In this document: positions 9,068 to 32,476 of the stretch, one piece after another
Layout: every line of letters begins with the position of its first letter
Position numbering within the stretch: position 1 is the stretch's first letter
Sequence record: PZ091942.1
Origin: a phage
DNA length: 64,000 bases
Strand: one strand, 5' to 3'
The notes under the pieces: model-generated
Seen by the model: the letters and a program-made list of their open reading frames with translations, nothing else
Told to the model about the DNA's origin: nothing
Databases searched by the model: none
Translations under genes and position numbers: made by a program

Positions 9068-9075
9068 AGGCGAAT

Positions 9076-10026
9076 ATGTCAATCTCCGCATCGACTGCTC
9101 CGGTAACACCATCAGAGGATTTTGGTGAGTCAGTGTTCAGAGGGCGAGCTTGTTTTGGTACTTTCAACTGTCAGCATATGTATTCTGTTACAGACATTAA
9201 CGGCGACAGTATCAATCGCTCAAACCTTCGTGACAGAACTTCAGAAATTGGAGTTATCAACTTCTGGCCTCACAACTTTTATGGCACACCAGCTAAAGAT
9301 ATCGAAAGAGCTTTAGTTGAAGCAACAGACATTTTTAACTCAATGTCTTGCTATAAAAACATGTTCTCTGTCACTTCGGTGAACTCAGTTGCCGTGAACC
9401 TTCGAGACCACCCAGCAGACAAGGTGTTTACTGGATTAATGACCCTCCGGAGTTATCTGGATGGGGATTTTATGGGAATGGAGTTCCTTCAGGAAGGCGT
9501 TCAAGACAAGGAAGAGTTACTCAAGCGACAACGAATCGGCTTAGCTTTACGCTTAGCTGGTTTAAGTCGTAACTTCTTTGGTCGTTGGGATTATTCACAC
9601 GATGTGGATACTGATGATGAATCAGCAGCGACCTATTTTAATGGTGACATGAGTGCAATTGCATTCTTGCCACTAGTCTGTACCACTGATGAATTTTCTG
9701 AAAACGTATGGGTTCAGAATGTGTTCGGTATTGACGATAACAGAGATGGTTATGTACGAAACCACAATGACGGAGTTCTCCGCAGTATGGCTCGTCGTCG
9801 TGACCAAGACCCTGACTATTACGAAAGTATGAGTGAGTGGTTACGTCTCTGGTCAATGTGTGCAGGCCACAAACGTGAAGTATTAGATCAGCGTATGGAC
9901 AGAATTACTGTTCAAAGTTTTATTGAACGTCTGATGCAAGCAGTACCTTCCTCAATGACACCAGAAGAAGCTGGTGCCCGTGTTGTTTCCCTTTTTGATG
10001 AACTCGTGGAGTATTACAATGACTAA
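9076..10026 (+). CDS. hypothetical protein (operon member)
   Basis: ATG with AGAGG RBS; 316 aa; no recognisable motif. Confidence 0.55.
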   Translation: MSISASTAPVTPSEDFGESVFRGRACFGTFNCQHMYSVTDINGDSINRSNLRDRTSEIGVINFWPHNFYGTPAKDIERALVEATDIFNSMSCYKNMFSVTSVNSVAVNLRDHPADKVFTGLMTLRSYLDGDFMGMEFLQEGVQDKEELLKRQRIGLALRLAGLSRNFFGRWDYSHDVDTDDESAATYFNGDMSAIAFLPLVCTTDEFSENVWVQNVFGIDDNRDGYVRNHNDGVLRSMARRRDQDPDYYESMSEWLRLWSMCAGHKREVLDQRMDRITVQSFIERLMQAVPSSMTPEEAGARVVSLFDELVEYYND

Positions 10027-10825
10027 GCGTGCTTTCCTTATTGGTTCTGACCCTGAAATGTTTGTTCGTACCGCTTCTGGTATTATCACCTCTGTGGCTG
10101 GTAAGCTGGGCTGTTCCAAAGATAACAAAATCGATCTGGCCCCTGATGTTCGTCTTCAAGAAGACAACGTTCTGGCTGAGTTCGATATTAACCCACAGAA
10201 AGGGTTTGAAGCGTTTGATGATAACATCCAGCGTGGTATTGATCTGACCAACAAAGTTCTCCATGAACGTGGTATGGAAGCTGCACTTGGGATTAGCTCC
10301 CATGTGTACACTTCTGAAGAGCTGGAATCATTCCACCCGTCAGCCTTCGTATTTGGCTGTACTCCTGATTTCAACGCCTTCACTGGTCAGAAAAACCCAT
10401 CTCCGGTAGCGACAGACAAAGGTCTGCGTACCGCTGGAGGTCACGTTCACCTCGGTGTTACTGGTACACTGGAAATTAGTCGTCAGACTCAGATGATGCT
10501 GGGTGTGCTGTGCGATTACTTCCTGTCACTTCCAGCGGTTGTGATGGACAAGGACACTCGTCGTAAAGAGCTTTACGGCAAGGCATCTGCGATTCGTTAT
10601 AAAGATTACGGTATTGAATATCGTTCTCTGTCAAACTTCTGGATTGGTGAACAGTCCACTCGTAAGTTTGTTTACGATCAAGTTGATAAGGTTATTCAGG
10701 GCTGTGACATGGAAACCCTCATGTCTCTGCATTCCCGTTTGCCTATCGAAAAGCTTCACAACATCATCAACAGCAACGATGTTAAAGAAGCGGATAAGTT
10801 CTCCTCTCAACTTCAGATTATCTAA
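10019..10825 (+). CDS. hypothetical protein, possible carboxylate-amine ligase-like (weak)
   Basis: ATG 10019 overlaps upstream stop (ATGACTAA); track start 9974 rejected; GSDPEMF..GCTPDF..GGHVHLG motifs. Confidence 0.5.
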   Translation: MTKRAFLIGSDPEMFVRTASGIITSVAGKLGCSKDNKIDLAPDVRLQEDNVLAEFDINPQKGFEAFDDNIQRGIDLTNKVLHERGMEAALGISSHVYTSEELESFHPSAFVFGCTPDFNAFTGQKNPSPVATDKGLRTAGGHVHLGVTGTLEISRQTQMMLGVLCDYFLSLPAVVMDKDTRRKELYGKASAIRYKDYGIEYRSLSNFWIGEQSTRKFVYDQVDKVIQGCDMETLMSLHSRLPIEKLHNIINSNDVKEADKFSSQLQII

Positions 10826-14680: not shown

Positions 14681-14914
14681 ATGGAAGTTCGTAAATTGAT
14701 GTTGGATAACGTTGTAACCACTCGACGTATCCCAATGACAAGCACAGGATGTGACAACCTTCGAGCTATTCAGAAATGGATGCAAGAGGGTATTGGGGGA
14801 CTGGTTAACTCTCCAGTTGAAATTCCTTTCCCAACCGTTATCAACAACGTGTTGGCTGACTATGTGAAATTGAAGGGGATTAAAGTTGAGCCTCATGTCA
14901 AGCAAGGGAGCTAA
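14681..14914 (+). CDS. hypothetical protein
   Basis: ATG with AAGAGG RBS; 77 aa. Confidence 0.45.
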   Translation: MEVRKLMLDNVVTTRRIPMTSTGCDNLRAIQKWMQEGIGGLVNSPVEIPFPTVINNVLADYVKLKGIKVEPHVKQGS

Positions 14915-15116
14915 GCCTCACCTGACAATGCTGGAGTATCAACAACTCCGACTTCAACAACTGGTAACGGAGCAGCGAAAGCTGTATCCGTTTGCTTTTA
15001 ACCTAATTGATTCACCAAGCGATGACCAAGAAGACGAGATGTTCGCCAAGTATTGGGAAATCGAAGTTAAAATTCAATCCTGTCGTAACGAAATTCTTAA
15101 ACTAAAAGGTATCTAA
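14886..15116 (+). CDS. hypothetical protein (start uncertain)
   Basis: Track start is TTG; in-frame ATGs at 14895 and 14928; no clear RBS. Confidence 0.35.
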   Translation: MSLMSSKGAKPHLTMLEYQQLRLQQLVTEQRKLYPFAFNLIDSPSDDQEDEMFAKYWEIEVKIQSCRNEILKLKGI

Positions 15117-15118
15117 AA

Positions 15119-16366
15119 ATGACTACTCGTATCCGTGTTCTTCCGTATGGCCCTTCTGATTCTGTTAACGCTCTGGTAACTGCCATTAATGATACTATCC
15201 GTGATGAACGTATCAACGCTAACGTAATGGGTCTTCTTTCAGAGAACAGCCGCTGGCGTTCTCGTGAAGGTGATGTGGTTGTGAACTACGGGAACCGTCG
15301 CTATCCTGAATCATTCTTTGGTTCTGCAACTGTTCTGAACAGCACAGCATCTCTGCATATGGCAGCGAACAAGCGTCGTGCTTTTAGCGTGATGGACCAA
15401 GCAGGTGTTAAAACAGTTGAATATACAGATGTTCAATCAACTGCTCAAGAGTGGTCAAACTCTGGCAATATTGTGTATGAGCGTCATGAACTGACTGGTC
15501 ACTCTGGTTCAGGCATTGTTGTTGTAGAGCCTCGTGATTCGGTTGGTCAAGCTGAACTGTACACCAAAGGTATCCTAGGCCCACGTCGTGAATGGCGTGT
15601 CCATGTGTTCAAAGGTGCTATCACCTATGTTCAGAAAAAGATTCGTCGTAACGGTTATCGTGAAGACCCTAACTATCGTGAAGATGTTCGTAACCATCAC
15701 ACTGGTTGGGTTTACTCAAGTTCCTTCACAGACGTTCCGAACGACACCTCTCTGATCAACGCAGTGAAAGCTGTTGAATCAATGGGTCTGGATTTCGGTG
15801 CAGTTGATATCATCACCAAAGGTCAAGAAGCATGGGTACTGGAAGTTAATACAGCACCGGGCCTAACTGGCACAACTCTGGATATCTACCGTCATAATAT
15901 CCTTGAGTTTGTTAAAGCTCAAAACCCTCTTTATACTCCTCAGTATAAAGTAGTTTACCAGACTCCTGTTGAAGCTCCAATCGAAGACGGAGACGGTGAG
16001 TTGGTTGCTGACAGTGAAAGTGCTGACGATGAAAACTTTGCACTGGAAGGCCAAGTAGCACAACCGGTTGATTCAGTTGATGTGGTTCCTGAAGAAATGC
16101 AACTGGAAGGTCAGATGAATACTCAAACTATTCGTAATGCACCTACTGGTTATGTGTTGTCTCGTGGTTATTGGATTGCCAACATCCGTCATGTTCATAA
16201 CAACCTGCAACCAAATGCAATGGCTGCCAATGTCATTCTGTTCTGTGATGGTCGTAACTTCTACCGCTCTGGTTGGAACGTTCCGGTCAATCCAGTCCAG
16301 ATTCATAACCCTCGCAAGTTAGAATCTGTCAATGTTGAAGGTAGTGAAGTAGCAGTAACTCTGTAA
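15119..16366 (+). CDS. ATP-grasp ligase (RimK-like)
   Basis: GHSGSGIVVVE and GAVDIIT..EAWVLEVNTAPGL match ATP-grasp nucleotide-binding motifs. Confidence 0.65.
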   Translation: MTTRIRVLPYGPSDSVNALVTAINDTIRDERINANVMGLLSENSRWRSREGDVVVNYGNRRYPESFFGSATVLNSTASLHMAANKRRAFSVMDQAGVKTVEYTDVQSTAQEWSNSGNIVYERHELTGHSGSGIVVVEPRDSVGQAELYTKGILGPRREWRVHVFKGAITYVQKKIRRNGYREDPNYREDVRNHHTGWVYSSSFTDVPNDTSLINAVKAVESMGLDFGAVDIITKGQEAWVLEVNTAPGLTGTTLDIYRHNILEFVKAQNPLYTPQYKVVYQTPVEAPIEDGDGELVADSESADDENFALEGQVAQPVDSVDVVPEEMQLEGQMNTQTIRNAPTGYVLSRGYWIANIRHVHNNLQPNAMAANVILFCDGRNFYRSGWNVPVNPVQIHNPRKLESVNVEGSEVAVTL

Positions 16367-16392: not shown

Positions 16393-16635
16393 ATGTTGTC
16401 TATCGAAGATTTGATCAGCCGTGGAATGACCGAAGAAAAAGAGCCTCTGATTGTAGGCTCTCGTAAAGCTATTAACCAACTCTGTGAAGAGTTTGGCATC
16501 ACAAACAAGAGAATGATTGGTAATCAGTTCTCTGCAATCATCACCTTCCTCAAACGAGGTGATAAATATTCAATGGAATGTGTTGAGCGTATCATCGCAA
16601 TTGCACAAGAAGATAAGGGAGTAACAACTCTGTGA
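16393..16635 (+). CDS. hypothetical protein
   Basis: 80-aa ORF with ATG after AAAAGGAA. Confidence 0.45.
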   Translation: MLSIEDLISRGMTEEKEPLIVGSRKAINQLCEEFGITNKRMIGNQFSAIITFLKRGDKYSMECVERIIAIAQEDKGVTTL

Positions 16636-16817
16636 ATAAATATACAATCATGTTTCGTACAGTATCAGCAGAAGGGAATATTCAATCTCTGGACATTCAA
16701 GCAGACCGCTTTGAATCACTTGGAACAAATGTTAATTTCTTCCGAGGTGCAGAGCTAGTAGGTATGTTCCAATCTGATGTATTGACTGGTGTGATCAAAC
16801 ACTTCGAAGTAGAATAA
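16632..16817 (+). CDS. hypothetical protein
   Basis: 61-aa ORF coupled to upstream gene; followed by TAGCC..GGGCTA-type hairpin at about 16825-16848. Confidence 0.4.
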   Translation: MNKYTIMFRTVSAEGNIQSLDIQADRFESLGTNVNFFRGAELVGMFQSDVLTGVIKHFEVE

Positions 16818-16874
16818 TTTGCTTTAGCCTCTTCGAAAGAGGGGGCTAGTTCGAATTTAACTGGAGGTTGTAAA

Positions 16875-17291
16875 ATGGTTGATAATAAACTGGATATGTT
16901 TAAAAGTCGTATCTTAGATGTAGAGTATTCCAAAAACCTCTTTGAGAAACATAAGAAAGAGGCAAAGGAAGAATTAGAAAGTCTTCTGAAAGATGAAGAG
17001 ATTCCACTCTTTAATCGCTGGTGCCTGTTTATGGAGCACAGCTCCCTTTTCCCTGTGGCTTCTAGCTCTATCAGCAGAGCTGTTAACTATGCAGTAGACC
17101 GTTATTATGACTTGGAGAGATATCGAACCTACACCCTCTCTGATATTTTTGAAGAGTATTGGTTCAAGGAAAAAGAATTGTCGAACAGTGATCTTGTGGA
17201 AGCTGTTAAGGAGAGTTTTGAACTAATCTCTGAAAAAGATGTTCGATCAATCATCTTCTCCGGATATTCTGGTTTCCTATACGATTGGTAG
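16875..17291 (+). CDS. hypothetical protein
   Basis: ATG with GGAGG RBS; 138 aa. Confidence 0.5.
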   Translation: MVDNKLDMFKSRILDVEYSKNLFEKHKKEAKEELESLLKDEEIPLFNRWCLFMEHSSLFPVASSSISRAVNYAVDRYYDLERYRTYTLSDIFEEYWFKEKELSNSDLVEAVKESFELISEKDVRSIIFSGYSGFLYDW

Positions 17292-17297
17292 ACAGTC

Positions 17298-17495
17298 ATG
17301 AAAAAGATTTTACTCCTCCTCTCCTTATTCAGCGTATCAGCAATCGCCGCTGATGAATGCATCTCTAAAGATTCAGGGAGAGGTCAAATCGTAACTCAAT
17401 GTGGCAGCCATGTAACGGTTGTCGATTCTATAACTCAAACAATTCTCGTGTGTAACGGGACTTCTTGTACAAAAGAAATTCTAAACAAAAGGTAA
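17298..17495 (+). CDS. small secreted Cys-rich protein
   Basis: Signal-peptide-like MKKILLLLSLFSVSAIA then six Cys in about 45 residues. Confidence 0.45.
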   Translation: MKKILLLLSLFSVSAIAADECISKDSGRGQIVTQCGSHVTVVDSITQTILVCNGTSCTKEILNKR

Positions 17496-17499
17496 TGTA

Positions 17500-17931
17500 A
17501 TGTCTGATAAAGTATTAGTTGCAACGTATGGTTCTCTTCGTAAAGGTCAACACAACCACGCTATCAATGCTCGTGCCGGTGGTGTGTCTATTGGTGAAGG
17601 GTGGACAGTAAACAACTGTAACCTGTATCAGTATTGCACAGCATACTTCCCAAGTGTATCTCTGGTGCATGACAGCAATGGCAAGCCTGTTCGTGTAGAA
17701 GTCTTTGAAACAACCCAAGCTGGTCTGGAAGGTCCGTATGACGGTCTGGAAGGTTATCGTGGTAAAGACAATCCGTACACCTTCTATAATCGTACACTGA
17801 TTCCAGTAGTGCTGGATAATGGTGAAACTGTGGAAGCATGGATTTATCATATCGACGAAGAACAAGATGTTCTGGTTGAATCTGGTGACTGGACAGCGTA
17901 TCTGGCAGGTGAACAGGATGACAGTAACTGA
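17500..17931 (+). CDS. gamma-glutamyl cyclotransferase-like (GGCT/AIG2 family)
   Basis: N-terminal YGSLRKG motif and downstream VEVFE acidic residue typical of the GGCT fold; AAGG RBS. Confidence 0.6.
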   Translation: MSDKVLVATYGSLRKGQHNHAINARAGGVSIGEGWTVNNCNLYQYCTAYFPSVSLVHDSNGKPVRVEVFETTQAGLEGPYDGLEGYRGKDNPYTFYNRTLIPVVLDNGETVEAWIYHIDEEQDVLVESGDWTAYLAGEQDDSN

Positions 17932-18124
17932 GCGACAGAAGCTGAGAAAGCTTGAGTCTGATTACTTAAAGTTACGGTGGAAGATTAACCGTTATGATAA
18001 GTTTGTCAGTATGCTTGACCGCAATAAACATTCTGAAGATTTTATCATGAGAACCCAATCAGCTTTACAGGGTTTTAAAAGTCTTCAAGATGATGTGTGG
18101 GAAGAAATACGTTCGTTTTATTGA
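17918..18124 (+). CDS. hypothetical protein
   Basis: In-frame ATG of track ORF 17819-18124 chosen to minimise overlap with GGCT gene. Confidence 0.35.
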   Translation: MTVTERQKLRKLESDYLKLRWKINRYDKFVSMLDRNKHSEDFIMRTQSALQGFKSLQDDVWEEIRSFY

Positions 18125-18160
18125 AGAAGTCTGCTCAAGGAATTCCAAGGAGGATAGAGC

Positions 18161-19951
18161 ATGTCAAAGATCATCCTAGGAGATACAGGTTGTAAAGAAT
18201 GTATCTCTCATGGTCGTGATAAGACCCACAATCACATGATTCTCTTCCGAAATGAAGAGTCCGGTGAAGAGTGGGGCAGTTGTAATCGTTGTGGTAGTTA
18301 TGAAGTTTTCGAAAAGGGAACAACTCCTACACCGAATGAGAAGAAAGAACTATCCCCTGAAGAACTCCGAGAGATCTTAGACGATTGCTTAGAGCTACCT
18401 CAGGGTGAGCTTACTCGTCGTTTGATTCCTAAAGCTGTCTCTGAACGGTATGAATGTCGTATTGGTTTAAGTCAGACAGATGGGCAAACTCCTGACAGTT
18501 ATTTCTTCCCTCGTGAACGTGATGGAAACATTGTTGGTTATGAAGTTAAGCTTCTGGACAGCAAGAAGTTCTATTACATTGGCAGTGTTAAAGAAGCCGA
18601 CTTGTTCGGCATGGCTCAAGCACAGCGTGGTGATGTATACAACAAGAAGCTCTTCATCTTTGAAGACCCACTTTCTTGTATGTCTGGTTTCCATGTGCTC
18701 ACTGCGTTCACGAACGCTACAAACATCAAACCTGCTTGTGTATCTCTACCGTTCGGTGCAGGTTCAATCTCTTCCGTTCTATCACGTAACCGTGACTTCT
18801 TGAACGGTTTTGAGGAGATTGTACTCTGCATGGACAATGATGATGCGGGTGAGATTGCATTAACTAAAGGTCGTGCATTATATCCACATGTTAAGTTTGC
18901 TCGTATTCCGAAAGGAACCTTCACTTATAATGGTCAAGAGAAGGAGATCAAAGATGCGAACGACATGTTACTCGCTGGTCGAGGTCAAGAGCTATTCAAC
19001 AATCTGAAATACTCAGCGAAGCGGGAATCGCCTGCTGGTGCTGTTACTGTCTTTGATTGCTTAGAAGATGCTCTGAAGAAAGCGGAATGGGGTATTCCTT
19101 ATCCGTGGAAAACTCTGAATGAGATGACCTTCGGCATTCGTTGGGGAGAGATGGTTGCTATCGGTGGTGGTGTTGGTTCAGGTAAAACCTTAATCGCACA
19201 CGAACTGGTAGCATGGCTTTGCCTTGAACATGGTTTTAATGGTGGTGGCTTCTTCTTGGAAGAGAAGGTAGGCATGTCTGTTAAGAACATTGCAGGTAAG
19301 TCAGCATCTGTACCTTTCCACCGACCTGATGTTGAGTATGAGGAAGCTCAGTTACGTGACGAAGCACTTCGTTACGCTGATAAGTTCTTCTTGTATGACA
19401 ACTTCGGACAGAACGAGTGGGATGATATTAAGCAGTGTATTCGCTTCTGGGTAGTCGAGAATCAGTGTAAGTTTATCATTCTTGATAACATTACTGCGCT
19501 AGTCTCTCACCTAACTCCGTCTGAGGTGAATACAGAAATCAGTAAGATTGCTTCAGAGCTTGCTGGTATGTGTAAGGAATTAGACTTCACTGCTTTTGTA
19601 TTATCTCACTTGAATGCTCCGGCAGGTGGTGCTCCTCACGAAGAAGGTGGACAGGTGAAAGAAGTTCAGTTCACTGGTTCACGTTCACTAATGCGTTGGT
19701 GTCAGTGCATCATCGGTTTTGAGCGAGATAAGCAAGCTGATGGGTTAGGCAAGAACTTGTCAATCATACGACTCCTCAAAGAGCGTAACTATGGTCAGAC
19801 AGGTGTTTGCTACACCAAGTACATCAATGAAACAGGTCGACTTGTAGAACGAGAAGATCATGAAGTTGATGAAGCTAATCCGTTTGTCTTGACCAATGGT
19901 GAGGATGCAGCTTCTCTGCTCACACAAGACGGGGAGGCACGACCTTGGTAA
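18161..19951 (+). CDS. DNA primase-helicase (T7 gp4-like)
   Basis: AAGGAGG RBS; N-terminal zinc ribbon CKEC..CNRC, Walker [10 protein letters not shown], Walker B FIILDNIT. Confidence 0.85.
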
Positions 19952-20493
19952 AGAAAATATTCGCCTTCGATATCGAGGGTGATAATCTTTATGAGGGCAT
20001 CCAAAATGTCTGGTGTATCTGGATATTTGATGCTCTTACAGGTGAACGGTGGGGGTATCGCCCTCACCAAATTGAAGAAGCTCTTCACAAACTGAAAGAA
20101 GCTGATGTAGTTGTAGGTCATAACATTATCGACTTCGACCTTCCAGCTCTCTTTAAATTCTACTCTCATGTAATACCTTTCCACTTCAATGTCTTCGATA
20201 CACTTTGCCTGAGTCGTTATCTCAAGCCTGACCGTATTGGAGACAATCCAGAATACCCCAAAGGCGACCCTAGACATGGCCCTCGTGGTCATGGCCTCAA
20301 GCAATGGGGCGAATTCCTGGGTGAGCTGAAGGGTGATTATGGTGAGCAGGAAGAAGCATGGGATGCATTCACTGAAGACATGTTCACATATTGTGAGCAA
20401 GACGTTAACTTAACAGTTAAGGTTTACATGTGTCTTTGCCAAATGGCAGGATTTGATTATAAGAATCCCCCATCTCTCAACTGGAAAATGTAG
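19945..20493 (+). CDS. 3'-5' proofreading exonuclease (DEDDy, DNA polymerase exonuclease domain as separate gene)
   Basis: Exo I FDIEGD, Exo [13 protein letters not shown], Exo III YCEQD; TTG start with GGGGAGG RBS, overlapping helicase stop. Confidence 0.75.
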
Positions 20494-20495
20494 AA

Positions 20496-21944
20496 ATGAT
20501 TAAGATTCCATTGTCTGAATTGAACCTTCAAGAAGGAGAAGCCCTCAGTGTAGGGCTTGACCTAATTCGTAATTTGATCAGAGATAACGTAGTCCCTGAT
20601 GGTATCTATCCTGTCATTGCAGGTGGTGCTATCCGTGATACGTTCTTCCAAAATCGAACTCCGAATGATGTTGATATCTTCCTAGTTCAAGGAGGGCTTC
20701 GTTGGAACACTCGTCAGGAAAACAGCCCTGCTAACGTAGGTAATGCTGCACTTTTCCTTGACAACTTCTTATCTTGGACAGAAAGTAAGGGGCTTCAGGT
20801 TACATCTCGACTAATTCAGCCTGTTAACGGGACAACCTATGCTGAAGCGCTTTTCACTTTCCAAGAGATTCTGGAAATTGAGATTGATCAAGTTAAAATC
20901 CAGATGATGATTAATCTACCTTTGGATATGGATACTTTAAGCCGTCGCTTCCCTATGATCTGTCAAGGGTTTATGACTCTTGGTAATCTGTATGTGTCAA
21001 ACGAAGGTTTGTTTGCAATGTCATACACTCGTGACATTCCTGTGGTATCTAGTCGTGAAATGAAGTACGTTCACAAGAAGTGGCCTGAAGCAACTGTTGC
21101 AGTTTATAGCAGTTCTACCGAATATATGCACCTTGCAATGGGAGCTTTCGGTGAGCCAGAAGTTCACCTGATTAGTGATTTAGTTGGACCTATGGCTGGT
21201 GTAAATTTATATCAGAATCAGCGTCGTCATTATACCCTGAAGATGATGGAAACTATATTAAACATTCCTCAGGAAAGGGGTCGTAGTTATCTGGACGAGG
21301 AAGTTAACCTACAGACAGAATGGTCTAGTGGATTAACCACTATCGGTGCTGAAGCAATCACACAACCTTGGACTCCGGGAACCAACAGACGTGACTCTTG
21401 GCAACAGGAAGTCCCAAGATTCGCAGCCCCTTCTACAATGGACCCTCGTAATACTTTTAATGGCAGTTTTGGTAGTGCACGTTCTTCTGGGACGGACACC
21501 CACAACCGTACATGGCATGTTCAAGGGGGAACTGCTCGTCCTATTCCTTCTCCGTCAATGGGTGATTTACAGCGTTCTCGTCGTTCATGGGAAACAGTAA
21601 GCTCAGTTGTTCAGGGTCTACGTGCTGGTGATATAGAACGTGTAGAAGTTGGTGATTTGCCAACCCCTATGGAAGATCGAGTGTCAACTATAGCGGCTCG
21701 TGAAGCTGCTCGTGTTGGTTTTCCATCTTTAGCTAATGATGCTAACAATACTCCTCGACCTGTCGGTCGTCGTAACGGTCTGGCTCACTCTGACACTGCA
21801 CTTGGTGCAGAACTTCGAGCTGCTGCTCGTGAACTATCTGGTGAGCTTCATAACAACTTAGCAGGTGTTACACTATCTCGTGAAACAGCTCGCAACATGA
21901 TTAACAATTTGGCATCATCTGTACAAGGAAATAGAAACTCATGA
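20496..21944 (+). CDS. nucleotidyltransferase (Pol-beta superfamily, CCA-adding/poly(A) polymerase-like head motif)
   Basis: VIAGGAIRDTFFQNRTPNDVDIFLV matches GGxVRD...DxD head-domain motif; C-terminal 200 aa low-complexity. Confidence 0.45.
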   Translation: MIKIPLSELNLQEGEALSVGLDLIRNLIRDNVVPDGIYPVIAGGAIRDTFFQNRTPNDVDIFLVQGGLRWNTRQENSPANVGNAALFLDNFLSWTESKGLQVTSRLIQPVNGTTYAEALFTFQEILEIEIDQVKIQMMINLPLDMDTLSRRFPMICQGFMTLGNLYVSNEGLFAMSYTRDIPVVSSREMKYVHKKWPEATVAVYSSSTEYMHLAMGAFGEPEVHLISDLVGPMAGVNLYQNQRRHYTLKMMETILNIPQERGRSYLDEEVNLQTEWSSGLTTIGAEAITQPWTPGTNRRDSWQQEVPRFAAPSTMDPRNTFNGSFGSARSSGTDTHNRTWHVQGGTARPIPSPSMGDLQRSRRSWETVSSVVQGLRAGDIERVEVGDLPTPMEDRVSTIAAREAARVGFPSLANDANNTPRPVGRRNGLAHSDTALGAELRAAARELSGELHNNLAGVTLSRETARNMINNLASSVQGNRNS

Positions 21945-22474
21945 GTCTTTTAGGTTCTCAAGAATTACACAGCGTTATTGATAATGGCTTTTTAGATGCG
22001 GAGCATAAATATGTTAACGCTGCTAGCGTGGATATCCGTATTGGTGATACTATCCTTGTTGAAGAACAGGCTGACGGCATTGTTGACATTGATGCTAAAG
22101 AAAACCTCAAGTGGAAAGAAGTAAAAATCCCTGAAGATGGTATCGTTATCACTCCGGGACAGTTCTTCTTAGCTCACTCGATGGAAGAGTTTAACCTTCC
22201 AGATAATATCTCAAGCCTGTTTGTACTCCGCTCCTCAATGGCTCGTTGTGGTTTAAACCACCTCCATGCTGGTTGGGCTGATGCAGGGTTTAACAGCAGT
22301 AAACTAACCTTTGAATTTCATAACGTTACCCATAATCATAGCTTACGAGTTCGTGCTGGGATGCGTGTTGGTCAAATGGTTATGTTCGAACACTCTCACG
22401 CTGGTGATGACTCTTATGCAGTGAAGGGTCGATACAACGGCAGTAATGGTGTAGTTGCATCTAAGGGTGTATAA
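21941..22474 (+). CDS. dcd: dCTP deaminase
   Basis: ASVDIRIGD and LRSSMARCGLNHLHAGWADAGFNS..LTFEFHN match dCTP deaminase/dUTPase-fold signatures. Confidence 0.75.
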   Translation: MSLLGSQELHSVIDNGFLDAEHKYVNAASVDIRIGDTILVEEQADGIVDIDAKENLKWKEVKIPEDGIVITPGQFFLAHSMEEFNLPDNISSLFVLRSSMARCGLNHLHAGWADAGFNSSKLTFEFHNVTHNHSLRVRAGMRVGQMVMFEHSHAGDDSYAVKGRYNGSNGVVASKGV

Positions 22475-22479
22475 CCAAG

Positions 22480-22671
22480 ATGAAAGAGGAAAAAGCTACT
22501 TACTTAGCTGTTGGTTTTATAGTTGGGGCATTTGCTATGGGAGTATTTATATCTAACGTTGGTCCAGATTCTAGCGTTAAGATTGAGACGAGAAGAGCTG
22601 CTTGTGAAATAAATCTCCCTCGTAGTCAGGTCTGTGTAATGCAGTTTGTCCCTAAATCGGTTGACAGATAA
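22480..22671 (+). CDS. small membrane protein (1 TM)
   Basis: Hydrophobic YLAVGFIVGAFAMGVFISNV segment. Confidence 0.4.
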   Translation: MKEEKATYLAVGFIVGAFAMGVFISNVGPDSSVKIETRRAACEINLPRSQVCVMQFVPKSVDR

Positions 22672-22883
22672 TGGAGTTTGGAACAATGAAAAGACGTTGG
22701 GTAGTTCGTATTCACTGGAGTAGTGGTACAGAGTCAATGGGTATTAGGAATACCCGTCAAGAAGCTCGCGCTCATAAGAAGTTCTTGTTAAGTTGTGAAA
22801 GCACAATTAATAAGATCACTATCCACAAAGCTCAAGACTTTAAATCAGGTCGTTTCTATATCAGCGGAAAGGTACATTACTAA
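22671..22883 (+). CDS. hypothetical protein, tandem paralog a
   Basis: NTRQEAR..KK ... I.IHK ... SGRFYISGKVHY shared with next ORF. Confidence 0.45.
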   Translation: MEFGTMKRRWVVRIHWSSGTESMGIRNTRQEARAHKKFLLSCESTINKITIHKAQDFKSGRFYISGKVHY

Positions 22884-23098
22884 TGGATAAATTATGGGCA
22901 GTTCGTACTAAATGGGCTAACAAAGCTCTTGGTGGTGATTGTATTCAATTATTCAACACAAGACAAGAGGCTCGTCTTGCTAAGAAAACTATAAAAGCTA
23001 CAAAAGCTTTAGGAATCGCTGAAAAGGTGGAGATTCATCGTTGGATTGAAAATATCCATAACAGTGCTGGATTCATATCCAGCAAGGTTTATTACTAG
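22883..23098 (+). CDS. hypothetical protein, tandem paralog b
   Basis: NTRQEARLAKK ... AGFISSKVYY; ATGA-coupled to paralog a. Confidence 0.45.
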   Translation: MDKLWAVRTKWANKALGGDCIQLFNTRQEARLAKKTIKATKALGIAEKVEIHRWIENIHNSAGFISSKVYY

Positions 23099-23122
23099 TT
23101 GGTAGTAGATATGATAACTCTC

Positions 23123-23131
23123 AAATGTATA
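23123..23131 (+). promoter_or_regulatory. AAATGTATA promoter-like motif
   Basis: Near-copy of TAATGTATA motif, 37 nt upstream of ATG 23169. Confidence 0.3.
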
Positions 23132-23168
23132 TACAGTATAAGAATATTGTATGAAACAGGAGAGAGTT

Positions 23169-23498
23169 ATGTTAGATTTGAGTAAAGTGGCCCCGCCATC
23201 TGAAGAGATTAGCAAAGCTAAAGTTATGCAGCAGTTCTACCATCGGGATATGCTTGGTCGTTATATCAAGAATCGTGATGTTGTTGCATGGTCTATTGGA
23301 AATCAAGGTTATCTTCTCAAAGTGTTGCAAGTTACTGGCTCAACAGCCAAGCGTGTTAAGGTGTATGACCCTGAAATGGGGCGTTCTAAGTCTGTAGACC
23401 CACAGAACTGCATCGTTATTACCCAGCAAGTAATGGATAATATTGAACGCAATGTAGCGAACTCAACTAACTTAGAGGGAGAATCTCCAAATGCATAA
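23169..23498 (+). CDS. hypothetical protein
   Basis: ATG with AGGAG RBS (track start 23151 lacks RBS). Confidence 0.5.
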   Translation: MLDLSKVAPPSEEISKAKVMQQFYHRDMLGRYIKNRDVVAWSIGNQGYLLKVLQVTGSTAKRVKVYDPEMGRSKSVDPQNCIVITQQVMDNIERNVANSTNLEGESPNA

Positions 23499-24057
23499 TA
23501 ATGTCTTCGACTTACCAGAACTGACACGAGTGGGTTCTAGCAACCCATTCTCTACAACTGACTCTTCTATCTCTCGTCTAGAGGGAATGAATAAACTGAT
23601 CAGTGGTAACAGTCTAGAGCACATCCTATGCGGTGTGCAGGCTAACCTTGAGCTTCTACACATCAAAGCAAAGAATTATCACTGGAACGTCTCTGGAGCT
23701 GGTTTCCAAGGTGTTCATGGTATGTTCGATGAATTAGAAGACTATGCTCGTGAAACTGGTGATCGGGTAGCAGAGCGAATGCGTTATCACTGTATTAAAG
23801 TGGATGCAACAGCTAGTAGCTATCTTGGTTGTGCTTGGTTCCGAGAAGGTAACGCTGATCTCGACATGGACGGTATGCTTTCCGACATGTGCATGACTCT
23901 TATGTGTATGATTGAGAAGATGGATGAGTTTGATTCAGACTTGTGCACCTATCCAGTAGACCAGAGTATGCTTCAAGAAATTAATGAAGGTCTTGGCAAG
24001 TTCTGTTACTTCGTCAAGAGCAACATGTCCCACTCTAGTGGCGATGTGTCTTACTAA
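23491..24057 (+). CDS. Dps-like ferritin-family protein (putative)
   Basis: LCGVQANLELLHIKAKNYHWNVSGAGFQGVHGMFDELEDYARETGDRVAERM matches the Dps signature. Confidence 0.5.
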   Translation: MHNNVFDLPELTRVGSSNPFSTTDSSISRLEGMNKLISGNSLEHILCGVQANLELLHIKAKNYHWNVSGAGFQGVHGMFDELEDYARETGDRVAERMRYHCIKVDATASSYLGCAWFREGNADLDMDGMLSDMCMTLMCMIEKMDEFDSDLCTYPVDQSMLQEINEGLGKFCYFVKSNMSHSSGDVSY

Positions 24058-24078
24058 TCAAACCTCCGCCCTGTCTCT

Positions 24079-24300
24079 TTGTTTAAGAGGTGGGGCGAAC
24101 TTCTTTATAAGGATATGAATATGTTTTCAGCAATCGTATGGTCTGTGTGGGCAATTTTTGTTGGTGGTATCGTTTATCTGGCTCAGAAGCAGATGCTTAA
24201 AGAGAATCCAAATGATGCTAAACCTATTAAACATGGTAGCATTGCTCTGGTAGTTTTCTCTGTTGTCATTCCTTTCCTTCTCCACCTGTTGACTGCATAA
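24079..24300 (+). CDS. small two-TM membrane protein, tandem paralog 1
   Basis: IVWSVWAIFVGGIVYLA ... IALVVFSVVIPFLLHLL; likely start at internal ATG (MNMFSAIVW). Confidence 0.45.
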   Translation: MFKRWGELLYKDMNMFSAIVWSVWAIFVGGIVYLAQKQMLKENPNDAKPIKHGSIALVVFSVVIPFLLHLLTA

Positions 24301-24309
24301 GGGTTTGAT

Positions 24310-24495
24310 ATGATTTCACTGATTGTGTGGGCCGTGTGGTCATTAATAGTTGGTACTGTTATATATAAAGCTCGAAATTTAGCAATTAAAGAAAACCCAG
24401 CAGAAGAGGATGTTAAAGCTATCAAGCTGGGTAGTGTTGTTCTGGTACATTTTGCTATAACACTACCTCTTGTTATTATTCTTTGTATGCTATAA
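24310..24495 (+). CDS. small two-TM membrane protein, tandem paralog 2
   Basis: IVWAVWSLIVGTVIY ... KENP ... VVLVHFAITLPLVIIL parallels previous ORF. Confidence 0.45.
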   Translation: MISLIVWAVWSLIVGTVIYKARNLAIKENPAEEDVKAIKLGSVVLVHFAITLPLVIILCML

Positions 24496-24507
24496 GGAAT
24501 CCAAAGA

Positions 24508-24684
24508 GTGAAACTAAACCTACCTGAAGAATTACAAGCACATGCCATTATCGTTAGTGGCTGTGTGATGGGTCTTGGTCAAACAAAGAAGATTGCTCAC
24601 GACTTAGCAAAAGGTCAGTATAAATCTTTTATTGTTGTTCCTGCTACCCAGCGTCATATCAACCTGTTTATTAACAAGGAATAG
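24508..24684 (+). CDS. small hypothetical protein (58 aa, not in ORF track)
   Basis: GTG after AAGGAA; third-codon positions A/T-biased like confirmed genes. Confidence 0.3.
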   Translation: MKLNLPEELQAHAIIVSGCVMGLGQTKKIAHDLAKGQYKSFIVVPATQRHINLFINKE

Positions 24685-24685
24685 A

Positions 24686-24964
24686 ATGAGTAAAGTAATT
24701 AAGTTTTATAGTAATTCATGTGCTCCATGTGCAGCTATGGCTCCTGTGTTTAAGAAGGTTGTAGCTGATTACAACGTAGAGGTTGAAGAAGTAAATATCT
24801 CTGAAGGTGATGGTCGAGAGCGAGCCATTGAATACGGTGTTCGCAGTATCCCAGCCTTTGTTGTCCCTGACCGTAATAGTGGTGCACATTATAGTTTATC
24901 AGGTATGCAGACCGAAGCAAACCTGAAAGCATTTTTGGATACAGCTCTGAATGGTAATCGATGA
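24686..24964 (+). CDS. thioredoxin/glutaredoxin-like protein
   Basis: ATG with AAGGAA RBS (track start 24632 rejected); CAPC active-site-like motif and RSIPAF cis-Pro region. Confidence 0.55.
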   Translation: MSKVIKFYSNSCAPCAAMAPVFKKVVADYNVEVEEVNISEGDGRERAIEYGVRSIPAFVVPDRNSGAHYSLSGMQTEANLKAFLDTALNGNR

Positions 24965-25421
24965 TTTAGAGTATATCCCCGAAACTGGAGAGTTCTTCCG
25001 AAATGGTAAGAAGTTAGGAGGAACTCGAAGTAAGTACATAACCCTACGGTTTAAAGGGAAGGTACACAAAGCTCATAAAGTGGCATGGTTCTTTTATTAT
25101 GGAGAATGGCCTTCTTCTCAGATAGATCATATCGACAGAAACAAGAAGAACAACTCAATACAGAACTTAAGACTGGTAGACACTTCGACAAACTGCCACA
25201 ACCAGTTCGGGGCTAGAGTATCAAACAAGGAAACAGGGCTTCAAGGTGTTAAGGTTGTCAAATATAGATCAGGGACTATTAGATATAGAGCTGTTATCTG
25301 TATTGATAAAGTAGACATACATCTAGGTATGTATGGCACTGCCGAAGAAGCCCATCAAGTTTACATGAATCGAAAAAAGGAACTTTTAATTGAACGAACA
25401 ACTACAAGCAACACTGATTGA
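24951..25421 (+). CDS. HNH homing endonuclease (HNH_3/AP2-type)
   Basis: IDHIDRNKKNNSIQNLRLVDTSTNCHN HNH motif. Confidence 0.7.
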   Translation: MVIDDLEYIPETGEFFRNGKKLGGTRSKYITLRFKGKVHKAHKVAWFFYYGEWPSSQIDHIDRNKKNNSIQNLRLVDTSTNCHNQFGARVSNKETGLQGVKVVKYRSGTIRYRAVICIDKVDIHLGMYGTAEEAHQVYMNRKKELLIERTTTSNTD

Positions 25422-26043
25422 AGCAATGGGTAGTGACAAATCTGTAGTCAACGCAGCTAGGGTATCTTTCGGTGTTGTTCGAGAAGGTGACTTAAATGAG
25501 AGAGACACAAAACTTATCAATTTCCTTGCACGGGAAAAACACTGCACGCCTTTCCGTCATCCGACAATTAGCTTCCGATGCAAAGCGCCAATCGCAATTG
25601 CGAGACAGTTGGGCAAGCATCAAGTTGGATTCTCGTGGAACGAAATGTCCCGGAGGTATAAAGATGGAGCAGTTGAATGCTTTGTCCCTGAAGAGATTTT
25701 TGAAAGACCTTCAGACCTCCATGCAGGTTCGGGGAGCCTCCTTATCGGAGCCAATGGTGAAGCAGCAAAAGTAGCCTTTGAACGTGCTTATACTTTAGCT
25801 GTTCAGACATACGAAGGGTTGTTATCAGAAGGTGTTGCACCAGAACAAGCTCGATTCGTATTGCCTCAGGGCATGATCACTGAGTGGGTCTGGACAGGTT
25901 CTTTATTCGGTTGGTCAGAGTTATGTCGTCAGCGACTGTCAGACCACGCTCAGTATGAAGTACGAGTGTTTGCATCAACTATTGATGAAGAGCTTCGTAA
26001 AATCTACCCAATCTCTTGGGATGCATTACGTGAAGCCCACTAA
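25390..26043 (+). CDS. thyX: ThyX-like flavin-dependent thymidylate synthase family protein with non-canonical RHR motif
   Basis: AARVSF, HCTPFRH, KAPIAIARQ, SWNEMSRRY, SDHAQYE align with ThyX; RHR position reads KHQ; start TTG 25390 or ATG 25426. Confidence 0.7.
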   Translation: MNEQLQATLIEAMGSDKSVVNAARVSFGVVREGDLNERDTKLINFLAREKHCTPFRHPTISFRCKAPIAIARQLGKHQVGFSWNEMSRRYKDGAVECFVPEEIFERPSDLHAGSGSLLIGANGEAAKVAFERAYTLAVQTYEGLLSEGVAPEQARFVLPQGMITEWVWTGSLFGWSELCRQRLSDHAQYEVRVFASTIDEELRKIYPISWDALREAH

Positions 26044-26215
26044 AGCATGTAGCTTCTGTCGAAAGCAGAAGCTTCTTATCAATTTCAAGCTGAACGAGGA
26101 AACAGGTTTGGGTCATGCTTTTTGTCATGATTGCAGGCACTACCTCGAACAGAAGCAATACATAAACTGGTTGCATTACTGCAACCCTAACATCTATAAG
26201 CACAAGGTTATCTAA
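26021..26215 (+). CDS. small Cys/His-rich protein
   Basis: In-frame ATG of track ORF 25955-26215; CSFC ... CHDC ... HYC. Confidence 0.35.
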   Translation: MHYVKPTKACSFCRKQKLLINFKLNEETGLGHAFCHDCRHYLEQKQYINWLHYCNPNIYKHKVI

Positions 26216-26695
26216 ATGAAAGCTATTTTTGAAGGAAGGGAGTATGATGTTCCTGATTGGGTTAAATACATAGCTCGTGACTATGATAATCTGGTTTGGG
26301 CATATGGAGACGTAAGACCTGTGTTTAATGAAAACACTGGTAGTTGGTCTAACATGTCAAAATTACCAGGATTTATTCGGGCACTTGGCTCTTCTAGTCG
26401 TCCTGTAGGTTTCGCTGCTGACTCACTTGTTGAGGTTGGTGTTGAAAAGGAAATAGACAAGCCAGAAACGATTTGGGTTTTATCTTCAAGCACACCAATC
26501 AAGGGAAGTCGTGGGATTTCCTTCTATGTTGAGCCTGTCGCTTACTTCAAAAACAAGCCGACCATTAATGCTCTTATGTTAAAGAATATCCCTTATTCGC
26601 AAGTTACCACCCTGTTAGACAATGGGACAGTGCTTGTTGAGAATAACGGGACAAATCAAATCTTTTATGATTTAGAAGAAAGGGTTTTAGAATGA
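26216..26695 (+). CDS. hypothetical protein
   Basis: 159-aa ORF, ATG abutting upstream stop. Confidence 0.5.
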   Translation: MKAIFEGREYDVPDWVKYIARDYDNLVWAYGDVRPVFNENTGSWSNMSKLPGFIRALGSSSRPVGFAADSLVEVGVEKEIDKPETIWVLSSSTPIKGSRGISFYVEPVAYFKNKPTINALMLKNIPYSQVTTLLDNGTVLVENNGTNQIFYDLEERVLE

Positions 26696-26904
26696 AAGGT
26701 TTAGGATTAGGAAAGCACCGTTTTACTTTCCGCATCTCCGACAGGAACCCATACCCAACGAAGATTGAACCTTACGAGATCATCTCTGAGGTGTTTATCT
26801 GGCCTTGGCAGAGTATCTATGATGTTGCTCTTAAGTCCAAGAAGAAGCTGATACCTGTTGGTATTTGGGCTGATGTTGATTTAATTAAAATCGAAAAGGT
26901 TTAA
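26692..26904 (+). CDS. hypothetical protein
   Basis: ATGA-coupled 70-aa ORF. Confidence 0.4.
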   Translation: MKGLGLGKHRFTFRISDRNPYPTKIEPYEIISEVFIWPWQSIYDVALKSKKKLIPVGIWADVDLIKIEKV

Positions 26905-26905
26905 A

Positions 26906-27226
26906 ATGATTAATGATAATACATTTAGGACTGGTAACGGAAACGAGATTAGTCCTGCTGAAGTGATTAAACGACACAGAACACAGATGCTTATCCACTC
27001 CTATTTGTATTATTGGTTGGATGACCCAATCTGGTCTGACGATAAGTGGCAACAAGTGGCTGATGACTTAACCACCTTGCAGGAGATGTATCCCGAACCT
27101 ATTGGATTCTTTGATTCAGAGTTTGAAGGATGGAACGGTTCTACTGGTATGCATCTCCCACATGACGAGCGTATTGCTTGTATGGCTACTGAAGTATATC
27201 GTTTACATAAGGACAAATCAATCTGA
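26906..27226 (+). CDS. hypothetical protein
   Basis: 106-aa ORF; HSYLYYWLDDPIWSDDKW region of unknown significance. Confidence 0.45.
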   Translation: MINDNTFRTGNGNEISPAEVIKRHRTQMLIHSYLYYWLDDPIWSDDKWQQVADDLTTLQEMYPEPIGFFDSEFEGWNGSTGMHLPHDERIACMATEVYRLHKDKSI

Positions 27227-27404
27227 AATGTTTTAAATGTGAATCAACTCTTCTCCATTTGAACTCGAAAGTAATACGGGAGCTTGCCAAAGGCTCCCCG
27301 ACTAAAGGGAAGAATAAGAAGTTTGTCGAAATTAAGGTTATAGGTATACATTGTTCAGAGTGTAAATCCTGTAGCTTCTTATATGAAGAACACGGAGGTA
27401 GGAA

Positions 27405-28145
27405 ATGAGTCGTAGAGAATCTCGGAAAGCATCACGGAGAGAATTACGTCGTGAAGCTCTCGTCACCAAGAAAGGAAAGCGGGAATTTGAAGAAGTAGTT
27501 CTTGCTAAGCCGGTAGTACCTCAGAACCAATTCCAGAGTGAGCTACTCAATGCTATCAAGACTAAACAAGTGGTGTTCACAGACGCTCCTGCGGGCTGTG
27601 GTAAGACGTTCGTCATCACCTCTACTGTCATTGATGCACTGAAGAGTGGTAAGATTCAAAAGATTATCATTAGCCGACCCTCTGTTGGCATGGGTAATTC
27701 TCTTGGATTACTTCCGGGCGGGCTTCGTGATAAGTTCGAACCATACCTAATGCCTATTGTTGATGTGATTACTCAGCGATACGGTAAAGGTTTCTATGAA
27801 TGTCAGCTTGGTAATGGGAACATTGAGTTTGTACCTCTGGAATATCTCCGTGGTCGATCTTTCAATGATGCCATTGTTATTGTGGATGAGTTCCAGAATA
27901 CAACCAAAGATGAGGCATTCTCTATCATGACCCGCTTGGGTGAAACATCCCAGCTGTTCTGTATGGGTGACACAAACCAGCACGATATGAAAGGTCGAGA
28001 GAGTGGTCTTACTTGGGCTACCGAGTTTATTGATGAGCACGACCTGTATGAGTTCGCTGATATTGTTGATGGCGACTCAGGTGATATTGTTCGTTCTGGT
28101 TTCTGTAAAGCAATTGTTAAAGCTATGGAAAAGGATGGTAATTAA
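27405..28145 (+). CDS. phoH: PhoH-like ATPase
   Basis: GGAGG RBS; P-loop APAGCGKTF and ISRPSVGMGNSLGLLPGGLRDKFEPYLMP. Confidence 0.8.
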   Translation: MSRRESRKASRRELRREALVTKKGKREFEEVVLAKPVVPQNQFQSELLNAIKTKQVVFTDAPAGCGKTFVITSTVIDALKSGKIQKIIISRPSVGMGNSLGLLPGGLRDKFEPYLMPIVDVITQRYGKGFYECQLGNGNIEFVPLEYLRGRSFNDAIVIVDEFQNTTKDEAFSIMTRLGETSQLFCMGDTNQHDMKGRESGLTWATEFIDEHDLYEFADIVDGDSGDIVRSGFCKAIVKAMEKDGN

Positions 28146-28331
28146 ATGCAAGTTGCCCTAGTTATCCGAGACTGTGGTGATGGTACTTCTACCATTGACT
28201 TCTACAAAAACATTGAACAAGCATGTTTTGAGTGTGAAGAATTTAATGAAGATACCTGTGTAAATGATGGTGAACCAACTATTATTGATGTTCCTGACAC
28301 TTTTGTACCACCTACAGGGTGGTGTGACTAG
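28146..28331 (+). CDS. small acidic hypothetical protein
   Basis: 61-aa ORF directly after PhoH stop. Confidence 0.4.
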   Translation: MQVALVIRDCGDGTSTIDFYKNIEQACFECEEFNEDTCVNDGEPTIIDVPDTFVPPTGWCD

Positions 28332-28402
28332 GGCTGGCAACTAAAGCCACCCTCTCATAATGTATACTCCTTAGTGTACACTGATATGTTAAGGAGTTGT
28401 AA

Positions 28403-28717
28403 ATGACTGATAAGGCTAAAAGAGATTATGCACAAGAACGAAGAACTGCAATCGCAAGGGGTGAGACCGGCGTTGGTAGCAAGAGCGGAGATGCTCAGCG
28501 CCACCGTGCACGTCGCATCGTTGAAAAGCGCGATGGAAAAGCTGCTGTCCGAGGTAAAGATGTTGGACACAAACGATCAATCAAGTCGGGAGGTTCTAAT
28601 GCGTCAAGTAACTTACGTGTTGAATCAATCTCTGGAAATCGCTCGAACGGCGGCAAAAGTGGAGATCGTGCTGGAAAATCAGCAGGCGGTCGCAAAGGAG
28701 CTTTAAGCTCAAGTTAA
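28403..28717 (+). CDS. basic Gly/Ser/Lys/Arg-rich protein
   Basis: AAGGAG RBS; A/T-biased third positions (unlike overlapping frame 28428-28706); terminator immediately downstream. Confidence 0.45.
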   Translation: MTDKAKRDYAQERRTAIARGETGVGSKSGDAQRHRARRIVEKRDGKAAVRGKDVGHKRSIKSGGSNASSNLRVESISGNRSNGGKSGDRAGKSAGGRKGALSSS

Positions 28718-28722
28718 TATAA

Positions 28723-28756
28723 GGCTACCCATTTCGGGTGGCCTTTTCTTTTATAT
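28723..28756 (+). terminator. rho-independent terminator
   Basis: GGCTACCC-ATTTC-GGGTGGCC hairpin then TTTTCTTTT. Confidence 0.6.
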
Positions 28757-28773
28757 AACCTAAGGTAATAAAT

Positions 28774-29025
28774 ATGTCTAAAGTAACTTATATCACTGTA
28801 ACTGATTTCTTTCCTTTTCTGGATGTAACTGAAAGCTACACCTTCCCCGTGAGCAATGTTACAAGCTCTGTTGAGATGATTCAATTTAACCCAACAACAG
28901 CTCGTACTAACGTGGCTCTTCGTGGTCCTGATGGCAAGTTCATCTCCTTCCGTGATAAGAGTGTTCCTAAGCGTATTGCTAAGTCTATTGAAAACTTGAA
29001 ACCTTTCCCTAACTTTGGTGCATAA
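28774..29025 (+). CDS. hypothetical protein, tandem paralog a
   Basis: TARTNVALRGPDGKFISFRD ... NLKPFP shared with next ORF; leader AAGGTAATAAATATG. Confidence 0.5.
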   Translation: MSKVTYITVTDFFPFLDVTESYTFPVSNVTSSVEMIQFNPTTARTNVALRGPDGKFISFRDKSVPKRIAKSIENLKPFPNFGA

Positions 29026-29026
29026 T

Positions 29027-29284
29027 ATGAAGATCAGCTTAATCCAAATCCGTGATCATCTCTTTAATGGTGATGCTCAGACTCATGATTACAAGGTTAA
29101 TCAAGGACAACACCCTACCAATCATCTTATTGGAGGGATTTCTCTATTACCTAATAAAACAGCACGGACGAATGTAATGATTCGTGGTAAGGATGGTAAA
29201 TTCCTCTCTTATCGTGACCCTGAAATCTGTGATGATGTTCGTACAGCTATGAACAATCTGAAACCTTTCCCGACAGTGGAGTAA
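29027..29284 (+). CDS. hypothetical protein, tandem paralog b
   Basis: ATG 29027 (track start 29015 is TTG); TARTNVMIRGKDGKFLSYRD ... NLKPFP. Confidence 0.5.
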   Translation: MKISLIQIRDHLFNGDAQTHDYKVNQGQHPTNHLIGGISLLPNKTARTNVMIRGKDGKFLSYRDPEICDDVRTAMNNLKPFPTVE

Positions 29285-29287
29285 GTT

Positions 29288-29641: not shown

Positions 29642-29657
29642 TTATAAGGAGTGGGTG

Positions 29658-32193: not shown

Positions 32194-32195
32194 TA

Positions 32196-32464: not shown

Positions 32465-32476
32465 TAAGGAGCTGGT

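Follow-up and report, generated by a model that had tools for sequence, protein, structure and literature searches.

The 64,000-nucleotide stretch of phage DNA analysed here (sequence record PZ091942.1; in what follows, the window) encodes a DNA polymerase of the T7 gp5 type in two pieces, a stand-alone DEDDy 3'-5' exonuclease of 182 amino acids at positions 19945–20493 and an exonuclease-less family A DNA polymerase of 614 amino acids at 29658–31502, which correspond to approximately residues 1–200 and 205–704 of gp5, respectively. Both genes lie on the plus strand, as does every feature below unless its orientation is given. As judged from sequence, the two halves are intact, under constraint, found together in the same genomes and complementary to each other on the gp5 map. 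Reasoning from this, we consider it probable (roughly 0.8) that a gp5-type gene was cut in its linker and that the two products form a non-covalent exonuclease–polymerase heterodimer, possibly joined by a thioredoxin of the phage. The split arrangement itself is real but already known, being annotated in RefSeq, represented by its own PHROG families and described in print.

The exonuclease open reading frame (ORF) starts with TTG, directly behind a gene for a T7 gp4-type primase-helicase of 596 amino acids (18161–19951) that matches PHROG 239 'DNA primase/helicase' at E=4e-174, has Pfam DnaB_C above and Toprim_2 below the respective cut-off, and is also annotated in Escherichia phage ECBP2. 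The TTG overlaps the TAA stop codon of the helicase (19949–19951; junction sequence CC-TTG-GTAA), giving an overlap of 7 nt, and a Shine–Dalgarno-like GGGGAGG, read from the sequence and present in the same form in ECBP2, lies within the helicase gene at 19931–19937, 7 nt 5' of the TTG. Upstream of the TTG, a stop closes the frame 14 codons away and there is no alternative in-frame start before Exo I. A preliminary description of this DNA, made from its letters and ORFs, had proposed this start, its overlap with the helicase stop and this ribosome-binding site (RBS), and had placed the Exo I, II and III motifs in the same ORF; all of these proposals agree with what we found.

The three motifs can be read in the translation as D9 and E11 for Exo I (FDIEG; codons 19969–19971 and 19975–19977), N60 and D65 for Exo II (HNIIDFD; 20122–20124 and 20137–20139), and Y149 and D153 for Exo III (YCEQD; 20389–20391 and 20401–20403). 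Together with H116 these residues are invariant in 24–25 homologues whose identity goes down to 30%, and they align with D5/E7, D65 and D174 of the T7 enzyme, H116 being the equivalent of T7 H123. The C-terminal tail is conserved as well, with F170 invariant and P175 and P176 nearly so. The protein matches Pfam DNA_pol_A_exo1 (PF01612; E=9e-7, 29.3 bits against a curated cut-off of 23.6) and two PHROG families that bear the name 'DNA polymerase exonuclease subunit' (38876 and 403). In BLASTP it aligns with residues 1–178 of T7 gp5 (33% identity, E=3e-16), and a family profile built from 24 homologues extends this to gp5 2–191 (E=3.5e-38). An AlphaFold2 model, calculated with the homologue alignment as input, reached a mean predicted local distance difference test score (pLDDT) of 93.2 and a predicted template modelling score (pTM) of 0.89. 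When this model was compared with the PDB using Foldseek, the top 27 matches were all T7 gp5 (E ~1e-10, TM-score up to 0.75), and all structures other than gp5 followed at E-values of 1e-4 or weaker. By motifs, profile and the RNase H-like fold of its model, the 182-residue protein is a DEDDy (DnaQ-like) exonuclease of the family A polymerase type, and we infer that it proofreads for the 614-residue polymerase.

For the polymerase gene, the mechanical ORF starts at GTG 29655. We favour ATG 29658, which begins 6 nt after an AAGGAG RBS (29646–29651) and agrees with a database protein of 98% identity that is likewise 614 amino acids long. Motif A (30777–30803) contains D375, E380 and R382, motif B (30984–31031) contains R443, K447, Y451 and Y455-G456, and motif C (HDE, 31347–31355) consists of H564-D565-E566; none of these residues varies among 36 homologues, and they can be aligned with those of T7 gp5. 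The conserved tyrosine of motif B is presumably the counterpart of T7 Y526. A Pfam scan of the ORF returned DNA_pol_A (PF00476) alone, at E=5.5e-24 and 85 bits against a cut-off of 34.3, and found no exonuclease domain; the ORF also matches PHROG 17. BLASTP aligned the protein at 30% identity with gp5 283–362 and 318–704, the former through polymerase residues 54–135 and covering part of the thioredoxin-binding region of gp5. The polymerase family profile is collinear with gp5 over residues 212–238, 318–366, 407–459 and 470–704. A phmmer search of the PDB placed T7 gp5 (E=7e-34) before Klenow (3e-9), and the AlphaFold2 model (pLDDT 88) again had T7 gp5 as its top 27 Foldseek matches in the PDB, with E ~1e-24 compared with ~1e-16 for Bst Pol I. 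Both sequence and modelled fold mark the 614-residue protein as a T7-like family A polymerase, with gp5 as its closest characterised relative.

Placed side by side, the two family profiles tile gp5 without overlap and without a missing segment, the exonuclease covering residues 2–191 and the polymerase 212–704; the cut lies in the interdomain linker (residues 192–211), and neither half has lost or gained residues at the junction. The same picture emerges from PHROG 17, a family of fused polymerases, in which the exonuclease ORF occupies profile positions 670–826 and the polymerase ORF follows directly at 837–1233. For both halves, T7 gp5 is the best relative of solved structure by sequence as well as by fold and, because the identities are also similar (33% and 30%), one ancestor that underwent fission would fit these observations. 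The preliminary description had held that the ORF at 29658–31502 carries gp5-like motifs A, B and C and starts directly in the polymerase domain, and had named a second exonuclease domain within it as an observation that would contradict the split; the profile begins at gp5 212, and no such domain was detected there by Pfam, PHROG or profile mapping.

Distribution and gene order

The window belongs to a phage of the Gordonclarkvirinae (Suseptimavirus) and shares its gene order and 95–96.5% nucleotide identity with phage ECBP2 (95.2% over 94% of positions 18000–32000; 96.5% over 99% of positions 1–25000). About a hundred phages of E. coli and Shigella match the window. The exonuclease is 99.5% identical to ECBP2_0072, a RefSeq 'DNA polymerase exonuclease subunit'.

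Homologues of the exonuclease found by word-seeded search (n=35) are all 105–195 amino acids long, none of them fused, and the best 120 polymerase homologues measure 369–618 amino acids, none long enough to hold a gp5-type exonuclease domain; length is, however, a weak criterion for fusion, as the profile search described below contains fused proteins of ~600 amino acids. Six pairs of exonuclease and polymerase homologues lie on longest sequences of equal length (81,643; 86,560; 88,363; 100,903; 112,127, the last being Vibrio phage Vp_R1; and 20,510 bp), which points to both genes occurring in the same genomes. Searching 1.84 billion cluster representatives with the exonuclease profile gave 4,870 relatives. 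Among the best 150, 44 have at most 240 amino acids, and 80 have at least 541 with the exonuclease domain at the N-terminus. Stand-alone and fused forms are, by this sequence count, both common, and some of the short matches may be fragments. A tblastn search of phage genomes returned 1,936 records, most of them fused polymerases of the Autographiviridae at 25–35% identity.

One order of genes is kept in three lineages, namely primase-helicase, overlapping exonuclease gene, variable cargo and polymerase. In Pseudomonas phage TL the helicase and exonuclease genes overlap by 17 nt and the exonuclease–polymerase gap is ~1.9 kb; in Aeromonas phage BUCT695 the overlap is 1 nt (TAATG) and the gap ~6.2 kb; in the window the overlap is 7 nt, as in ECBP2, and the gap 9.2 kb. 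The preliminary description had called for related genomes to be compared for a fused or a split arrangement, and the split recurs in ECBP2, TL and BUCT695. On the simplest reading of this gene order, the polymerase gene would have split once, long ago, and the cargo between its halves would have grown afterwards.

The literature gives a similar distribution. The two-gene organisation was reported for phiEco32 in 2008, as cited in the paper on phage tf, which itself describes the polymerase and the proofreading exonuclease as separate genes in every LUZ24-group phage (PMC3517423, 2012). The split has since been stated for the whole Kuravirus-like group and extended to Salmonella phage 7-11, Proteus phage Privateer, Vibrio phage Vp_R1 and Aeromonas phage BUCT695 (PMC9965538, 2023).

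Relation between the two halves

We postulate the following course of events. An ancestral T7 gp5-type gene, with exonuclease and polymerase in one chain, would have been severed in the interdomain linker. The exonuclease half would have stayed behind the primase-helicase gene, its translation from a weak TTG coupled through the stop/start overlap and served by its own Shine–Dalgarno sequence, and the polymerase half, with its own RBS, came to lie 9.2 kb downstream, behind a cargo of nucleotide-metabolism genes. The 182-residue protein would then dock non-covalently on the polymerase and restore the architecture of gp5, such that a mispaired 3' end could leave the polymerase site for the DEDDy site. 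A candidate docking element is the C-terminal tail of the exonuclease (F170, P175, P176), the counterpart of the gp5 linker. The thioredoxin encoded by the phage may act as a third subunit that confers processivity, as host thioredoxin does for T7 gp5. Such a three-part holoenzyme of exonuclease, polymerase and thioredoxin is plausible by analogy, and a similar idea of a thioredoxin partner has been put forward for phage Privateer (PMC7881722).

Several points weigh against a heterodimer. First, the exonuclease is coupled in translation to the primase-helicase and not to the polymerase. Second, two terminator-like hairpins with T-rich tails stand in intergenic positions between the two genes, at 24067–24097 (13-bp stem) and 28721–28745 (10-bp stem), and exonuclease and polymerase may for this reason belong to different transcription units; given these hairpins and the coupling to the helicase, stoichiometric co-expression is not assured. 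Third, the role of the thioredoxin is drawn from analogy and from a partial alignment (polymerase 54–135 to gp5 283–362). Lastly, our literature search found no biochemistry or other experimental work on any split T7-type pair, and no interaction, exonuclease-activity or proofreading data for such pairs.

We regard as unlikely, though deserving of consideration, that the 182-residue exonuclease is active apart from the polymerase, either bound to the helicase or as a free nuclease serving recombination, repair or the degradation of host DNA; in that case, replication by the polymerase would lack a proofreader of its own. The coupling to the primase-helicase that three lineages have kept would suit such a nuclease, and so would the distance of 2–9 kb between its gene and that of the polymerase, with terminator-like hairpins in the interval; in addition, the paper on Privateer lists the homologue merely as one of 'two exonucleases' (PMC7881722). 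The protein is, however, no generic DnaQ-like nuclease, its closest relative being the exonuclease domain of gp5 (Foldseek ~1e-10, against 1e-4 or weaker for others). It ends on the gp5 map where the polymerase ORF begins, and it co-occurs with a polymerase that lacks an exonuclease. Family A polymerases, moreover, reportedly depend on the exonuclease domain for their stability (PMC10201439).

Because the helicase gene ends in an overlap with the exonuclease start codon in three lineages, the exonuclease might be more than a passive copy of its counterpart domain in gp5, being made together with the primase-helicase and recruited through it. Its expression apart from the polymerase would then allow the phage to adjust proofreading and synthesis separately, for instance by a ratio of exonuclease to polymerase that differs between early and late infection; we think this reading quite unlikely.

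A rejoining of the halves into one chain, by programmed frameshift or readthrough, RNA trans-splicing or a split intein, is highly improbable from the sequence. Nine kilobases of dense same-strand ORFs lie between them, the polymerase has an RBS and an ATG of its own, and on the gp5 map no more than ~20 residues separate the new termini, which leaves no room for intein halves; in favour one can cite only that the halves are collinear with gp5 and that introns occur in the polymerase gene of relatives. A split intein and trans-splicing were discarded on the profile mapping to gp5, which shows no spare sequence at the new termini. We also considered a frameshift fusion of helicase and exonuclease and rejected it, as the open stretch of the exonuclease frame upstream is limited to 14 codons and no slippery heptamer was seen in the final 14 codons of the helicase gene.

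The preliminary description had allowed that the ORF at 19945 might be a pseudogene fragment, and a non-ATG start and short length would suit a decaying remnant or a chance ORF, but the conservation data effectively refute this: the ORF is full length and spans the exonuclease domain of gp5 entirely, none of its catalytic residues varies among homologues of 30–80% identity, its model has a pLDDT of 93, its relatives number 4,870 cluster representatives, and the 180-residue antisense ORF at 19858–20400 has no family match, PHROG included, and is taken as a mechanical ORF.

As a discovery the arrangement has small value, being in RefSeq, in PHROGs and in several papers. A natural split pair related to the T7 enzyme, accompanied by a phage thioredoxin and found in an abundant and easily cultured group of coliphages, would nevertheless make a convenient and clean test system. 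It could be used to study the mutual recognition of the two domains, a possible dosing of proofreading apart from synthesis, and the question of whether phage-encoded thioredoxins, too, work by the thioredoxin-processivity mechanism of T7.

Intervening genes and homing elements

Between the exonuclease and polymerase genes lie 9,164 bp packed with same-strand ORFs, of which five match Pfam strongly. The preliminary description had listed a nucleotidyltransferase, a dCTP deaminase, a ThyX-like gene, PhoH and many small ORFs here, and Pfam and PHROG matches support each gene that it named; a thioredoxin, an HNH endonuclease and a ligase-domain ORF were absent from its list and are added below. 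The first gene (20496–21944) encodes a nucleotidyltransferase-like protein of 482 amino acids, with a match to PHROG 12715 (E=7e-173) and none to Pfam. Its ATG lies 2 nt past the exonuclease stop, and the C-terminal half of the protein is long, of low complexity and rich in Ser, Arg and Gly. Next are a dCTP deaminase (21941–22474; Pfam DCD, E=1.6e-34) and, further on, a ferritin-like 'DNA binding protein' (23491–24057).

The phage thioredoxin (24686–24964; 92 amino acids, CAPC active site) matches Pfam Thioredoxin (E=2.6e-12) and PHROG 22, and an RBS was read for its gene. No thioredoxin is named in the ECBP2 RefSeq annotations over the span of the window (~71 kb of the 77.3-kb genome). The thioredoxin gene is followed by an HNH endonuclease (HNH_3) at 24951–25421, which overlaps the start of the gene for the thymidylate synthase ThyX (25390–26043; Pfam Thy1, E=2.4e-44). 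The ECBP2 ORF at the position of the HNH_3 gene shows only 43% protein identity, in a backbone that is otherwise ~96% identical, and window positions 24957–25402 have no megablast match to ECBP2. This sequence comparison suggests that a different homing-endonuclease allele was swapped in relative to ECBP2.

Downstream of thyX, an ORF of 106 amino acids (26906–27226) matches the Ia domain of NAD+-dependent ligases (PF22745, E=8e-34). It consists of this N-terminal, NAD+-binding domain only and is much too short for a ligase, yet it is called 'DNA ligase' in relatives; the NAD-dependent DNA ligase gp57 named in the paper on phage YF01 (PMC9965538) is possibly its counterpart. The protein might modulate host LigA. 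The last named gene before the polymerase encodes a PhoH-like ATPase (27405–28145; Pfam PhoH, E=7e-56). A scan for sigma-70 promoters over 16500–32500 gave 21 matches compared with 34.6 in shuffled controls, which is uninformative for a phage with its own sigma factor.

Outside this interval, a 5'-3' exonuclease of the FEN type is encoded separately at 37308–38153 (PHROG 107 'exonuclease', E=2.7e-60; Pfam 5_3_exonuc_N below cut-off). From its family match, it is the third nuclease/polymerase function of the replication set, and its equivalent in YF01 is gp27 (PMC9965538). In the window this gene comes directly after the ORF at 36743–37339; in ECBP2 the two are parted by an additional HNH endonuclease gene (ECBP2_0029), a further case of a homing endonuclease present in one genome and absent from the other.

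The polymerase gene of ECBP2 contains a 607-bp insertion with an HNH endonuclease ORF, in contrast to the gene in the window, which has no insertion. The inserted segment (locus 14686–15292, corresponding to window site 31349/31350) interrupts motif C exactly at the boundary of its His and Asp codons, with the 5' exon ending in T and the insert in G, and the Rfam Intron_gpI model aligns with it over its full length at 27.2 bits and E=1e-4, below the gathering score. The 51-residue ECBP2 coding sequence annotated as 'DNA polymerase' probably represents the 3' exon, wrongly given as a gene of its own. In phages TL (locus 8411–10717) and BUCT695 (20714–23183), an endonuclease ORF cuts the polymerase gene further upstream ('part II/III'), and metagenomic polymerase matches of ~450 amino acids, at 77–88% identity, suggest a similar interruption within the Kuravirus-like group. 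Homing elements seem to have targeted the polymerase gene repeatedly.

Comparison with known systems

Within the Kuravirus-like phages or Gordonclarkvirinae (phiEco32, ECBP2, YF01, SU10 and others), the same genes stand in the same order and there is no difference in kind from the window. The LUZ24-like Pseudomonas phages (Bruynoghevirus) also share the order, with a 3'-5' exonuclease or 'DNA polymerase part I' and 'parts II and III', and their polymerases are 36–45% identical to the one described here; their gap is only ~1.9 kb and their exonuclease starts with ATG, compared with 9.2 kb and TTG in the window.

T7 has in common with the window the Exo I–III motifs, H123, motifs A, B and C, and a gp4-type primase-helicase gene upstream. 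Its gp5, however, is one chain of 704 amino acids, where the window has 182 and 614 amino acids encoded 9 kb apart, and the polymerase of the window carries extra segments relative to gp5 at approximately residues 136–192, 327–370 and 392–421. T7 uses the thioredoxin of its host, whereas this phage encodes its own.

A second split is known from the S-SBP1-like cyanophages, which underwent an independent and recent fission of PolA according to the reclassification of family A polymerases by Czernecki et al. (2023; PMC10201439); an AlphaFold2 model of the S-SBP1 exonuclease–polymerase complex superposes on the unsplit polymerase (PMC10201439). As in the window, a T7-like PolA is divided into two genes at the exonuclease–polymerase linker. 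The S-SBP1 split is recent, arose by a +1 frameshift and left the genes adjacent, whereas here 2–9 kb of cargo lies between the halves and at least three lineages share the arrangement; the two splits appear to be independent events.

Polymerase and 3'-5' exonuclease are also separate polypeptides that must associate in E. coli Pol III (alpha and epsilon) and in archaeal PolD (DP1 and DP2). The comparison of a split PolA with PolD has been drawn before (PMC10201439). As Pol III and PolD belong to families C and D, the likeness is one of analogy, except for the DnaQ-like fold that the 182-residue exonuclease shares with epsilon.

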